From: Candidatus Pacebacteria bacterium RIFOXYA1_FULL_38_18 | Lineage (GTDB): Bacteria; Patescibacteriota; Microgenomatia; UBA1400; PJMF01 | Length of the DNA: 62,073 nt | Assembly: GCA_001787405.1 (NCBI GenBank) | Contig: MFWV01000013.1 | Coordinates: 1 to 62,073, forward strand | Direction of reading: 5' to 3' | Shown: piece by piece, positions 24,251 to 60,812 of the stretch | Layout of the letters: every line of letters starts with the position of its first letter | Numbering within the stretch: the stretch's first letter is position 1 | Notes under the pieces: model-generated | The model's input: only the letters and a program-made list of their open reading frames with translations | Told to the model about the DNA's origin: nothing | Databases searched by the model: none | Position numbers and translations under genes: made by a program

Positions 24251-24778
24251 ATGGGAAAAATATATTTTGTTCGTCACGGGGAGAGCGAAGGAAATGTAAA
24301 ACATACATTTGCTGGTCAAAGAGAGAATACTCCATTAACTGAATTAGGTCGTCAACAGGCTAAACAAGCTGCGCTTGATCTATTAAATCATAACTTTAAA
24401 ATTGATCGAGTTATTACTTCACCACTTAAAAGAGCTTATGAAACAGCTCAAATAATAGCGAAAGAAGCCAAGTTGAGTTCTCAAATAGAAATTGATGAAA
24501 GAATATCCGAGTATGACATGGGTGAGTTAACGGGCACCACCTATCATAAAATTACTTCTGAAGAATTAGTTACGGCTAAAGGGGCAGAGGATCCGCATGC
24601 ATTTCAAAATCGTGTGCATGATTTGTTAAATGAGTTAGCCCAGGGAGACAAGAATGTGTTGATAGTTAGTCATGCTGGCGTGGGAAGAATAATTGAGGCA
24701 ACAAAGAAGAACCTAGATCCTAGAAATTTTTACGATCTTAATTCAATGCAAAATGCAAAAGTTATTGTGTTAGATTGA
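24251..24778 (+). CDS. histidine phosphatase (phosphoglycerate mutase) family protein
   Basis: IYFVRHGESEGN catalytic RHG motif. SHAGVGR later in the sequence. Confidence 0.8.
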   Translation: MGKIYFVRHGESEGNVKHTFAGQRENTPLTELGRQQAKQAALDLLNHNFKIDRVITSPLKRAYETAQIIAKEAKLSSQIEIDERISEYDMGELTGTTYHKITSEELVTAKGAEDPHAFQNRVHDLLNELAQGDKNVLIVSHAGVGRIIEATKKNLDPRNFYDLNSMQNAKVIVLD

Positions 24779-26666: not shown

Positions 26667-27335
26667 TCAAACAACTATTCCGTAACCCTGACCTTTGAAA
26701 GTGACAAATAAACTCAAACCAAATTGTTTATCAATTTTATTGCGGAGTGAGCACATATAGACTTCTAGACTATTAGAGGATGGTTGACGAGTGGCATTCC
26801 AGACGATGTTGTAAAGAGTTTGAAAAGAAAATACATAATTTGGTCTACTCAAAAGAGTGCTGAGTAGCAAGGCCTCCTTTTTATTAAGATGAACAATGGT
26901 TTTTTTATAAGTAGCTTGTTTTTTTTCGAACTCAAATCGAAAGTCTTTATAAGAAAATATTGCTGAGTTTTGTTTTGAGTTTTTCGTGTGACTGATGTTG
27001 GACAAACGAGCCAGTAATTCTTGAGTACAAACTGAATTTGAAAGACAATCTTTGGCTCCGGCAGATAAAAGCTCTGCTCGTTGTAGGGAAGTGAGTGGAT
27101 TACTCAATATTAAAATATTCAAGGAAGGGAAATTTTCTCGTAATTGGAAAAGTAGTTTTTTGGTAAATGCTAGTGACAGTGATTCTGACCAAATAATCGT
27201 TGTTTGGTATTGATGTTGGGCAATTAATTTTAAAAAAGGTTTTCGAATAGAATGAACAGACAAAACATGCTTTTTTTGCAATGCTTGATAGAATTTCCAG
27301 GGCAGTGGTGTGATCCCAACCACTAAAACCTTCAT
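26667..27335 (-). CDS. atypical orphan OmpR/PhoB-type response regulator (degenerate receiver domain)
   Basis: C-terminal winged helix (HLNKKEALLLSTLLSRPNYVFSFQTLYNIVW..SLEVYMCSLRNKID..FVTFKGQGYGIV). The N-terminal receiver-like fold MKVLVVGITP.. lacks the acidic pocket and the phospho-acceptor Asp. Confidence 0.65.
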   Translation of the reverse strand: MKVLVVGITPLPWKFYQALQKKHVLSVHSIRKPFLKLIAQHQYQTTIIWSESLSLAFTKKLLFQLRENFPSLNILILSNPLTSLQRAELLSAGAKDCLSNSVCTQELLARLSNISHTKNSKQNSAIFSYKDFRFEFEKKQATYKKTIVHLNKKEALLLSTLLSRPNYVFSFQTLYNIVWNATRQPSSNSLEVYMCSLRNKIDKQFGLSLFVTFKGQGYGIVV

Positions 27336-27374
27336 GGCTGGGGAAATAAAATACAATAAAAATTACTCAATCGC

Positions 27375-27393
27375 AATGAAGCGAGAATGAAGC
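27375..27393. promoter_or_regulatory. direct repeat AATGAAGC-N3-AATGAAGC upstream of the regulator gene
   Basis: Copies at 27375-27382 and 27386-27393, period 11 bp, 40-58 bp upstream of ATG 27335. Confidence 0.35.
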
Positions 27394-27500
27394 AAAGACT
27401 TATTTTACATTAATGTTGCTTGGTTGTTGATCGTTTCGTGAGGTATAGTAATTAAAGATACCCGGCCGACCGCTCAAGCTTTAATTTTTATCCTATAATA

Positions 27501-27529
27501 TTGACTTTACTGCTATATTTTGATATACT
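27501..27529 (+). promoter_or_regulatory. strong sigma70-type promoter
   Basis: TTGACT (27501-27506), 17 nt spacer, TATACT (27524-27529), with TGA immediately upstream. Confidence 0.5.
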
Positions 27530-27654
27530 CGTCTCTGGTTTAGCACTTTAACACTATTCTTTACTTCCGCTGGGTGGATTGCTGAGTTTGTTGTCAACAA
27601 ATTGAGCCATCCACCCTAATCTCCCTCCGCAAAGGAGGGGAAAGGAGGTAAAGG

Positions 27655-27828
27655 ATGGGAAGCTTACTGCTAATAGCCGCCCTTTCGGGCGGCGCGGTAG
27701 TCAGCATTTTCCTCTCCTATAGGTCGTACAACAATCACGACCAACGGGGAGGAGAATTAGCGGCCAACATTAGCAAAATCTTGCTATTGTTGGCTGTTTT
27801 TACTGCAATAATTTACTTTTTGCAGTAA
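27655..27828 (+). CDS. unannotated 57-aa two-TM small membrane protein; could alternatively be a highly structured RNA
   Basis: AAAGGAGGTAAAGG-ATG. Product MGSLLLIAALSGGAVVSIFLSYRSYNNHDQRGGELAANISKILLLLAVFTAIIYFLQ*. Below the ORF-track cutoff. Confidence 0.5.
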   Translation: MGSLLLIAALSGGAVVSIFLSYRSYNNHDQRGGELAANISKILLLLAVFTAIIYFLQ

Positions 27829-27839
27829 AACACACCCCG

Positions 27840-27900
27840 CCCCGCCCGGCTGAAAAGCCGAGCGGGGGGAAACACCTTATTTATTTTTTCAAAAAATCAA
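27840..27900 (+). terminator. GC-rich GNRA-capped hairpin and distal T-tract after the small ORF
   Basis: CCCGCCCGGCT-GAAA-AGCCGAGCGGG (27841-27866, one mismatch), then ..TTATTTATTTTTT. Confidence 0.45.
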
Positions 27901-27989
27901 TAATTTCTGTTTTTTCAGTTTTCTCAATCACATGACGAAAATCCTGAATGAAGATGTTATCTTTGGTTTTTTTTTGTATACTTTAGTTC

Positions 27990-29357
27990 ATGCCTGCCAA
28001 GTCAAAAAATTTGCCCCAGCCACCGAGTATTCTTGGCACCTTGGGTCCATCTTTTATTTTGTTGGGCCTAGCTCTGGGCAGTGGTGAATTGATTTTATGG
28101 CCGTATTTGGCCGCCCATTACGGCTTGGGATTATTGTGGGGTGGTCTTTTGGGAATTTCTTTTCAGTTTATTCTCAACACAGAAACAATGCGTTACTCAC
28201 TGGCTTGGGGTGAGAGTGTTTTTGTAGGGTTTAGAAAATTGGCCCGCTGGATTCCTTTATGGTTTATTATTTCTACTTTTATTCCTTGGTCTTTGCCTGG
28301 TTTTTCTTCTGCTACAGCTCAGATTATGGTCAGTTTTTTTCCTTTTTTGAACGAAACTTGGCTGGCAATAGGTTTTTTGTTATTGGTGGGAATAATTTTG
28401 AGTTTGGGAAAGACTTTATATAAAACCGTGGAACAGGTGCAAAAAGGAATTATTTTTATCAGTTTGCCTTTCATTCTTTTATTAACTTTCATGTTTTCTG
28501 GGGCAACTGAGTGGAGAGAGTTGGGTTGGGGATTGATTGGTCGAGGAGATGGTTGGTGGTTTTTCCCACCGGGGATTGCTCTAGCTTCATTCTTGGGTGC
28601 CTTTGCTTACTCTGGAGGTGGTGGCAATTTGAATTTAGCTCAGTCTTATTACATTAAAGAAAAAGGTTTTGGCATGGGCAAATACACTGCCAAAATTAAA
28701 TCACTCTTTGCTTCGGGAGAGAAAAAAATTGCGGTAGTTGGTAGTCGCTTTGTTGATTCTACCAGCAACAGAAAATTGTGGCGGAAATGGTGGGGATTGG
28801 TAAACTTGGAACACTTCTTGATTTTTTGGTTATTGGGATTTTTAACGATCGTGATTTTGGCAATTCTAGCCAAAGCATTGGTTTATGGTGGCAAAGTAGG
28901 TGAGGGACTGGCATTTTTGTATACCGAATCAGCAATGATTACTGACAGATCGCACGCACTGCTTGGCAATGTTTTTTTATTGGTAGCAGGTCTGATGTTG
29001 TTTTCTACCCATTTGGGAATTTTGGAATCTTCTTCACGTATTATTTCTGAAAATATTTTTCTGTTTTTTAGTAACCAGAAAAAAGCTAATCTTTCTTTTG
29101 GGTTTTATATTGCTCTTTGGTTGCAAATTGGTTTGGGGGTCATCATCTATTTAGTTGGCTGGCAAGAACCCCGCTTTTTACTCACTTTATCAGCGATTTT
29201 GAATGCTGCAGCTATGATGGTGGCTTTCCCACTGGTTTTTTGGCTGAATAAAAAACACCTGCCCAAAGCATATCAACCTCATTGGTGGCGTCTTTTATTC
29301 ATGCTTTTTGCCTTTATATTTTTCGTGATTTTGGTGGGGGTAACTTTTTTCAGTTGA
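27990..29357 (+). CDS. Nramp-related membrane transporter (divergent)
   Basis: 11-12 predicted TM helices. LGPSFILLGLALGSGELILWPYLAAHYG sits where Nramp proteins carry GPG..DPGN. Confidence 0.55.
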   Translation: MPAKSKNLPQPPSILGTLGPSFILLGLALGSGELILWPYLAAHYGLGLLWGGLLGISFQFILNTETMRYSLAWGESVFVGFRKLARWIPLWFIISTFIPWSLPGFSSATAQIMVSFFPFLNETWLAIGFLLLVGIILSLGKTLYKTVEQVQKGIIFISLPFILLLTFMFSGATEWRELGWGLIGRGDGWWFFPPGIALASFLGAFAYSGGGGNLNLAQSYYIKEKGFGMGKYTAKIKSLFASGEKKIAVVGSRFVDSTSNRKLWRKWWGLVNLEHFLIFWLLGFLTIVILAILAKALVYGGKVGEGLAFLYTESAMITDRSHALLGNVFLLVAGLMLFSTHLGILESSSRIISENIFLFFSNQKKANLSFGFYIALWLQIGLGVIIYLVGWQEPRFLLTLSAILNAAAMMVAFPLVFWLNKKHLPKAYQPHWWRLLFMLFAFIFFVILVGVTFFS

Positions 29358-60126: not shown

Positions 60127-60500
60127 AGAGTGATTATACAAGAGGAAGGATGATAGAATACCCTTCATGAACCTATCAGTTGGAATAGTGTGGATGCAAT
60201 TCCACAACTAGACACCAGGTAGAAAGAAGACAAAACATATGTCAAGCAACCACCTATTAGCCTCAATAGAGGAGTAGCTAATAGACAGGGGATTTCCTTC
60301 GAGTTTACTATCAATCTTCCCAAACCAAGAAAAGCACGAAAGATAACAAAGAGGGACGAATTAGGTCGTATAATATGGACAAAAGCTAAATAGTTGACTT
60401 GTTTACTTTTTGATATAGTTAGCATACAATTTCCACTTGGCCTAAACAGCAATTGCGCTGTGGTGGCAAAAATCGTTCACGGGTATAAAAGGAGGCTATA

Positions 60501-60722
60501 ATGCCATACCCACACGAATCGAATCAATCCGAGAAAGCCCGCTTTGATGATGCGTGCGGTCGCGATGGGGCGAACCTTTCGCCAAGTGAGAAGGATCGCT
60601 TCAGCGATTACTTCCACACCCTGTCGAACCGTCAACGCATGTCCTTCCGCGAAATCGTCGACTTGGCGAATCAGTGGAAGCGTGATCACGGTGATGGCTT
60701 CCGTCGTAGCGATCGCTACTAA
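60501..60722 (+). CDS. 73-aa hypothetical protein in a GC-rich, probably foreign mini-cassette
   Basis: AAAGGAGG SD 8 nt upstream. A strong terminator follows. About 54% G+C by my hand count, against visibly AT-rich flanks. Internal duplication SEKARFDD / SEKDRFSD. Confidence 0.5.
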   Translation: MPYPHESNQSEKARFDDACGRDGANLSPSEKDRFSDYFHTLSNRQRMSFREIVDLANQWKRDHGDGFRRSDRY

Positions 60723-60746
60723 CGGAGGCGGCTGATTCAACCCACC

Positions 60747-60784
60747 GGGCAGTCATTCTTCGGGGTGACTGCCCCTTTTTTTTT
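60747..60784 (+). terminator. intrinsic terminator of the GC-rich cassette
   Basis: GGGCAGTCA (60747-60755), loop, TGACTGCCC (60766-60774), then C and T9. Confidence 0.75.
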
Positions 60785-60812
60785 CCTCAAAAAATTATAT
60801 ATTTACACTTGT

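Follow-up and report, generated by a model that had tools for sequence, protein, structure and literature searches.

A species-specific, hairpin-rich insertion with a candidate small membrane-protein gene between a regulator gene and an Nramp transporter gene in a Pacebacteria genome

The sequence analysed here, referred to as the window, is a stretch of 62,073 nucleotides (nt) from Candidatus Pacebacteria bacterium RIFOXYA1_FULL_38_18 (contig MFWV01000013.1), a groundwater member of the Patescibacteria; its guanine-cytosine (GC) content is 39%. The subject is the junction at 27336–27989, which separates a gene for an OmpR/PhoB-type regulator from a gene for an Nramp-family divalent metal transporter. 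The two genes are divergent, and the pair is conserved among relatives. The junction contains a species-specific insertion with a promoter-like sequence, a Shine-Dalgarno (SD) sequence, a 57-codon open reading frame (ORF) and a series of very stable hairpins, and it lies between two copies of the Nramp upstream region. The regulator matches Pfam Trans_reg_C at 2.4e-15 and Response_reg only at 0.022, its NCBIfam response-regulator matches are weak, and its start is the ATG at 27335, the start used by relatives. The features of the junction and its flanking genes are as follows.

26667–27335, − strand: gene of the OmpR/PhoB-type regulator, a winged-helix domain with a degenerate receiver (222 amino acids (aa) called in L022, an identical assembly)
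27336–27457, unstranded: left copy, the orthologous regulator–Nramp intergenic region, from local alignment to relatives
27375–27393, + strand: direct repeat AATGAAGC-N3-AATGAAGC with an 11-bp (base-pair) period, probable operator of the OmpR-type regulator
27444–27449, + strand: TATAGT, −10 box of the leaderless promoter that ancestrally served Nramp; the box now faces the insertion
27458–27475, + strand: dead Nramp start, ATA CCC GGC CGA CCG CTC (ATG changed to ATA), matching ATGCCCGGCCGACCG of relative L053 and ATGCCCAGCCGACC of relative L024
27476–27870, + strand: species-specific insertion, a putative self-contained transcription unit, missing from every relative checked
27501–27529, + strand: promoter TTGACT-17-(TTTTGA)TATACT, with 10/12 consensus matches and a TG extension
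27655–27828, + strand: 57-codon ORF, encoding MGSLLLIAALSGGAVVSIFLSYRSYNNHDQRGGELAANISKILLLLAVFTAIIYFLQ
27871–27989, unstranded: right copy, a diverged second version of the region upstream of Nramp, with TATACT at 27977–27982, 7 nt before the live ATG
27990–29357, + strand: gene of the Nramp-family divalent metal transporter (NCBIfam NF037982, 257 bits)

Relatives of the transporter were drawn from species genomes (21) and metagenomes (26), with four more obtained via protein look-ups. The regulator–Nramp gap was read in 11 loci (L001, L002, L003, L004, L009, L024, L049, L053, L057, L058 and L060), where it is ~70–135 nt long versus 654 nt here; the closest relatives, L024 and L049 (Nramp 83–84% identical), also have the short gap. 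Searches with nhmmer and blastn against 47 relatives' loci, and with blastn against phages and plasmids, gave chance matches only, and no insertion-like DNA was found in any of these sets. The window is 100% identical to L022, L023, L051 and L052, four independent assemblies, over the stretches compared, with no sequence variation across them, and is likewise identical to NCBI assembly GCA_001787395.1 over the compared stretch. Four independent assemblies with the same sequence show that the segment did not arise from misassembly. At least 24 contigs carry the exact Nramp protein, and four of these loci were compared. The contig of L023 (JGI 3300002093) ends at window position 27629, inside hairpin B (see below); the break could stem from a failure to assemble through the hairpin or from differences between strains.

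The left copy is clearly orthologous to the intergenic region of relatives, with local alignment z scores of 15.2 for L024, 7.4 for L001 and 3.9–5.0 for L053, L057, L058 and L060. In the same relatives the direct repeat stands at the same place, as CAATGARGC..ATGAGGC, (C)AATGARGC-N3-AATGAGGC; it probably serves the OmpR-type regulator as its operator. Nramp genes of the clade carry a TATAnT box mostly 7–8 nt (in two relatives up to 11 nt) before ATGCC, a leaderless signature. The pattern TATAnT-N7/8-ATRCC has three matches in the 62 kb versus 0.3 expected, and two of them (27444 and 27977) flank the insertion. The old start codon is now ATA, because L053 reads ATGCCCGGCCGACCG where the window reads ATACCCGGCCGACCG.

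The right copy is most similar to L009/L032 (z = 5.7 with the first codons, 3.4–3.9 without), and is not significantly similar to the left copy (z = 1.3) or to close relatives. Its operator repeat has a spacing of 16 nt, versus 11 nt in the left copy. Based on the comparison of the two modules, ~525 nt (27476–28001) took the place of ~15 nt at the 5' end of the ancestral coding sequence, and the new block consists of the ~400-nt unit and a second promoter-and-start module. The repeat that flanks the unit is a diverged promoter module of ~110–130 nt and not a short target duplication. We considered a simple recent tandem duplication of the promoter and rejected it: the copies are unlike each other, the left resembling close relatives and the right the distant L009 type. 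The left module has more in common with L024 than with the right module, which makes a plain recent tandem duplication improbable. The block would seem either to have been imported from another lineage or to include a right copy that evolved very fast. Two further candidates were also discarded. Searches with blastx and tblastx gave no similarity to a decayed tandem copy of Nramp or to another gene of the window, and a miniature inverted-repeat or insertion-sequence element is not supported, with no second copy in the window and no terminal inverted repeats at ~27476 and ~27870.

The locus also varies elsewhere in the clade. The N-terminal tail of Nramp differs in length by ~7–20 residues, and in L005 (2938–3000) it contains a tandem 12-nt repeat, CCCGCCCAACGA, in four copies that encode PTTR repeats. 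In L016 (2275–2300 and 2858–2885) another gene lies upstream of Nramp; it is preceded by an AAAGGAG SD, its 133-aa product has a membrane segment at the N-terminus, and a ~24-nt motif, CTGAACAAGTCAAnnAGGGGGAGC, is repeated upstream of both genes. This looks like another case, independent of the first, in which a gene was added at the locus and an upstream motif copied. An apparent likeness of the 5' untranslated region to L016 (29/37 nt) was attributed to chance; BLASTP between the two downstream proteins was empty, and the L016 stretch is promoter-like.

The promoter of the insertion is of a rare type. The pattern TTGACT-N-TGATATA occurs twice in the window, versus 0.03 expected, and the other copy precedes a conserved 73-aa gene. 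That gene lies in a second GC-rich island (60394–60790), which comprises a promoter TTGACT..TTTTGATATAGT at 60394, a leader of ~80 nt, the SD AAAGGAGG, a hydrophilic 73-aa ORF (60501–60722) and a canonical GC-rich terminator. The fold z score of this island is only −3.95. Its ORF has no family match in Pfam, PHROGs or PADLOC, and has three homologues with 69–89% identity (P0002–P0004). Because a gene with homologues at this identity carries the same set of promoter and SD signals, the set marks a real protein gene in this genome.

The SD of the insertion, GAAAGGAGGT at 27640–27649, is complementary over 10 nt to the tail of canonical 16S rRNA, and the ATG at 27655 lies 6 nt downstream. The genome is SD-poor: of the 60 GGAGG sites in the window, only 5 stand ahead of an ORF with 50 or more codons. 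Many genes lack an SD and instead carry a TATAAT-like box 6–10 nt before the ATG (examples are at 24251, 25388, 30010 (− strand), 41139, 44304 and 27990), and the genome appears, from these signals, to rely largely on leaderless mRNAs.

The ORF stays open across four hairpins and ends 7 nt ahead of the last one. The encoded peptide has two hydrophobic stretches of 19–20 residues, and the loop between them contains R, R and K. AlphaFold2, run without an alignment, predicts helix 2–26, a turn and helix 30–56, with a predicted local distance difference test (pLDDT) score of 78.5. A codon model favours the annotated frame (−240 versus −249 and −269). In 5000 dinucleotide shuffles, an ORF of at least 57 codons occurs in 23.6%, such an ORF with an SD in 1.06%, and such an ORF with an SD and two hydrophobic segments in none.

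The predicted RNA fold of the segment consists of the following elements.

27554–27568, + strand: 5' strand of helix P1 (the anti-SD strand), 15 bp with 27644–27658, in both the minimum-free-energy and the centroid fold
27572–27616, + strand: hairpin A, 19 bp
27620–27641, + strand: hairpin B, UCUCCCUCC, loop GCAAA, GGAGGGGA, 8 bp
27640–27658, + strand: SD GAAAGGAGGU, spacer and AUG, forming the 3' strand of P1 from 27644
27662–27705, + strand: hairpin C, with an inner hairpin GCCGCCC-UUUC-GGGCGGC at 27676–27693
27706–27757, + strand: hairpin D, UCCUCUCC with GGGGAGGA, enclosing GGUCGU/ACGACC (27722–27742)
27760–27797, + strand: hairpin E, 16 bp
27798–27830, + strand: hairpin F, 11 bp, including the stop codon
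27837–27869, + strand: hairpin G, a terminator-like, GAAA-capped stem of 13 bp, of which 12 are G-C

The + strand of 27536–27900 folds to −177.9 kcal/mol, versus a mean of −100.2 kcal/mol for dinucleotide shuffles (z = −12.9), and none of 100 shuffles equals it. Among all 150-nt segments of the 62 kb, the five with the greatest stability fall within 27551–27900, at −63 to −81 kcal/mol; the mean over the whole window is −29.8 kcal/mol (standard deviation 7.7). The − strand of the same stretch folds to −152.7 kcal/mol (z = −10.2), 25 kcal/mol less stable than the + strand. Specifically, the + strand helices contain 11 G-U pairs and one A-C opposition, and the − strand fold contains six G-U pairs; this is a slight bias, in the same direction as the promoter, SD and ORF. 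No perfect DNA palindrome with a stem of at least eight Watson-Crick pairs and a loop of 3–9 nt is present in the region. The fold includes two GNRA-type loops, and three GGAGG-type and three CCUCC-type tracts, every one of which is paired. The GC content is 45–56% within the segment, versus 30–37% in its flanks.

Helix P1 encloses hairpins A and B in a three-way junction and pairs both the SD and the AUG. In the predicted ensemble, the SD is unpaired with a probability of 0.14 and the AUG with a probability of 0.002. When the 5' strand was removed in silico, the SD paired again, probably with the UCCUCUCC tract at 27710–27717. Other than that, the minimum-free-energy and centroid folds consist of independent local hairpins, and neither contains a competing terminator/antiterminator pairing. 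The U run of hairpin G begins 8 nt past the stem, and a terminator scan made no call.

The original prediction, made from the sequence of this segment, had pointed to the promoter, the SD-led frame with its two hydrophobic segments, the consecutive hairpins and the elevated GC content, and all four were confirmed, with every hairpin recovered in the minimum-free-energy fold. Its suggestion that CUCCCUCC sequesters the SD is not borne out by the predicted fold, in which the partner of the SD is 27562–27568, or UCCUCUCC at 27710–27717 when the 5' end is absent. It overlooked the 15-bp helix P1 and the lineage-specific insertion between the two Nramp promoter copies. The SD-locking helix, the species-specific insertion, the duplicated leaderless promoter and the inactivated old start are new here.

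The 57-aa peptide is an orphan. A word-indexed search of 5.8 billion proteins and an exhaustive phmmer search of 1.84 billion representatives returned only the peptide itself, and back-translated scans of genome and viral contigs, like the profile searches, gave no homologue. Pfam, NCBIfam, PHROGs and PADLOC gave nothing significant and no known toxin family. The proposed resemblance to UPF0391/DUF1328 proteins is not supported: hmmscan against Pfam at E up to 10 finds only DUF5009, sub-threshold at 13 bits versus a cut-off of 25. A structured pattern scan of genome contigs gave one match, in Desulfatitalea, which we take to be chance. The search with Rfam covariance models gave no family at threshold and no support for the proposal of a novel structured or dual-function RNA; in a permissive search of the region the best matches were sRNA41 (25.8 versus a gathering score of 45) and HgcC (23.1 versus 50), and at gathering level the window yielded tRNAs and nothing else. 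Upstream of Nramp, none of 20 relatives' loci gave an Rfam riboswitch.

We tentatively favour, with a probability of about 0.42, the reading of the segment as a ~400-nt insertion (~27476–27870), young and confined to this species, that carries a complete small membrane-protein gene whose translation is gated. The host-type promoter at 27501–27529 would start the RNA near 27536. The 119-nt leader would fold into the three-way junction, whose closing 15-bp helix would pair the SD and the AUG, so that the mRNA would be made in a translationally closed form. The ORF would encode a membrane hairpin of two helices joined by a basic loop, its coding RNA forming four consecutive hairpins, and the GC hairpin with the GAAA loop would terminate the unit. 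Opening of the closing helix by processing, a helicase, temperature or a co-transcriptionally loading ribosome may then allow the small membrane protein to be produced. Nramp would now be served by the second promoter copy. Because the orthologous promoter and operator of Nramp lie immediately upstream of the small gene, and the old start is dead, it is probably also fed by the regulator-controlled promoter, and thus, as its position suggests, probably wired into the metal-transport regulon.

The predicted pairing of SD and AUG, the rarity of the architecture among shuffles (0/5000), the AlphaFold2 hairpin, the host-type promoter and the 10-nt SD, in a genome where SD sites are scarce, speak for a genuine small membrane-protein gene under tight control of translation. 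This is the best-supported of the readings offered by the original prediction, without the UPF0391/DUF1328 likeness that had accompanied it. Several observations weigh against it. Since the peptide has no homologue, the case for coding comes entirely from intrinsic signals, which were picked after the sequence had been seen. The figure of 0/5000 overstates the significance, because shuffles destroy local composition and hairpins, and AlphaFold2 tends to call any hydrophobic stretch helical. The GC content at third codon positions is 0.55, versus 0.34 for the host. The coding region is nearly all base-paired, which is unusual for a translated gene, and the SD is still paired after 5' truncation, leaving no evident route to open translation. 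A more elaborate form of the reading, which we regard as quite improbable, is a dual-purpose gene, newly born or captured in a bacterium of the candidate phyla radiation, that couples a hyper-structured RNA to a two-helix membrane peptide and was recruited into the metal-transport regulon by duplication of the leaderless promoter and operator, with the old start switched off.

The segment could instead be functionless young DNA, either a foreign fragment or a product of template switching during replication, fixed by chance in a clonal population, with the hairpins being DNA-level palindromes. The species-specific occurrence, lack of homologues and atypical GC content are what such DNA would show, the − strand folds well too (z = −10.2), and the four identical assemblies give no sign of selection. 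Long near-perfect stems are expected of a recent inverted duplication (PMC8794818). We nevertheless consider this explanation rather unlikely: promoter, leader, SD, ORF and terminal hairpin share one orientation and stand in the correct order, the promoter is of the host type, the G-U pairs favour the + strand, and the frame is open through four hairpins. It is likewise improbable that the segment makes a non-coding RNA, or one that functions through its structure, and that the ORF is incidental; such an RNA would be a series of stable hairpins and of duplexes between SD-like and anti-SD-like tracts. This reading is consistent with the extreme fold stability, the + strand bias, the GAAA and GCAAA loops and the three GGAGG-type and three CCUCC-type tracts, each paired, as well as with the rare use of SD sites in this genome and a peptide without a homologue. 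However, no Rfam family comes near its gathering score (HgcC has 23 bits versus 50), and the lack of a homologue means that there is no support from covariation. The ideally spaced ATG with its 10-nt SD, the end of the frame 7 nt before the last hairpin and the two hydrophobic segments are improbable by chance, and near-perfect long stems would be atypical of globular functional RNAs.

In a type I toxin-antitoxin system, the 57-aa peptide would be a membrane toxin, its mRNA would be inert by sequestration of the SD, and an antisense RNA from the − strand would neutralise it. To our knowledge, no type I system has yet been reported from Patescibacteria. Classical type I toxins mostly have one membrane segment, and the peptide here has two. 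It matches no known toxin family in Pfam, NCBIfam or the defence-system library PADLOC, and the 62-kb window holds no second copy. By published descriptors, toxin mRNAs are 150–400 nt long, encode 20–60 aa and have an anti-SD ahead of the SD as well as a stem-loop at either end (PMC8594479). The mRNA predicted here, of ~335–355 nt, agrees with them in its length, in the length of its peptide and in these elements, and the locus is a lineage-specific orphan, as such loci often are. Weak promoter-like sites are present on the − strand, namely TTGAGA-16-AATTAT at 27927–27900 (9/12) and, by eye, TTTTGCTAATGT at 27778–27767, but no convincing antisense RNA or combination of antisense promoter and terminator was found, and the four promoter-like sites compare with 2.1 expected by chance. 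The proposal of a toxin-like mRNA thus agrees with the mRNA descriptors and less well with the number of membrane segments, and we judge a type I system unlikely. Least probable, and indeed very unlikely, is a cis-regulatory leader of Nramp, in which transcripts from the 27444 and 27501 promoters would pass the hairpins and a weak terminator, and translation of the small ORF would modulate read-through. The left promoter and operator are conserved and face the insert, hairpin G has no adjacent U run and termination may therefore be leaky, the ORF stops 7 nt before hairpin G, and the operator spacing in the right copy is 16 nt and not 11. Nramp, however, retains the clade's leaderless signature (TATACT-7-ATG) and, by implication, its own start site; no relative uses such a leader, with intergenic regions of ~70–135 nt and no Rfam riboswitch in 20 loci; and the fold has no alternative terminator/antiterminator pairing. 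A leader-peptide attenuator was rejected, with independent hairpins, a hairpin G that lacks an adjacent U run and an Nramp gene that keeps its leaderless promoter.

The observation itself is confirmed and statistically exceptional; what this single-species orphan does, we infer. If the ORF is translated, the locus records the datable entry of a new small membrane-protein gene into a reduced genome, the insertion being younger than the split from relatives with 84% identical Nramp. If the favoured reading of a gated membrane-protein gene is true, the locus shows how a new gene is wired into an existing regulon through a copied promoter/operator module, and provides a case of translation that starts from an SD and is gated by structure, in a genome otherwise dependent on leaderless mRNAs. 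Should the peptide be a toxin, RNA-controlled toxin systems would extend to Patescibacteria. If none of these applies, the segment is an orphan insertion without general consequence.

Among known systems, HgcC (Rfam RF00062) is likewise a GC-rich, hairpin-rich island with its own promoter in an AT-rich genome. The cmscan match to it is weak (23 bits, E = 0.0046), far below the gathering threshold of 50, and, unlike the archaeal HgcC, the segment here carries an SD-led ORF. Type I toxin mRNAs such as hok, aapA1, tisB and bsrG (T1TAdb, PMC8594479) resemble the predicted transcript in being short stand-alone mRNAs for a hydrophobic peptide, here of 57 aa, in having a ribosome-binding site closed by a predicted anti-SD and stem-loops at both ends, and in their patchy, lineage-specific occurrence. 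Unlike those mRNAs, the one predicted here encodes two membrane helices and not one, and its whole coding region is paired. The peptide has no sequence relation to any known toxin family; the likeness lies in the predicted mRNA, with promoter-like sites on the − strand at chance level.

MgrB, MgtS, PmrR and KdpF are small proteins that are co-regulated with metal transporters or two-component systems. The mRNA predicted here differs from theirs, and from that of MntS, in being base-paired throughout, a property for which none of them is known. The comparison with MntS is one of position: the peptide here is hydrophobic, whereas MntS is not a membrane protein, and the two are not homologous. 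MntS is co-induced with the metal importer MntH (PMC4361602); the gene here is a very small protein gene beside a metal importer gene and a response-regulator gene, downstream of an apparent operator. MntS has been argued to be evolutionarily young (bioRxiv 10.1101/2023.06.02.543501), and the small gene here is evolutionarily young as well.

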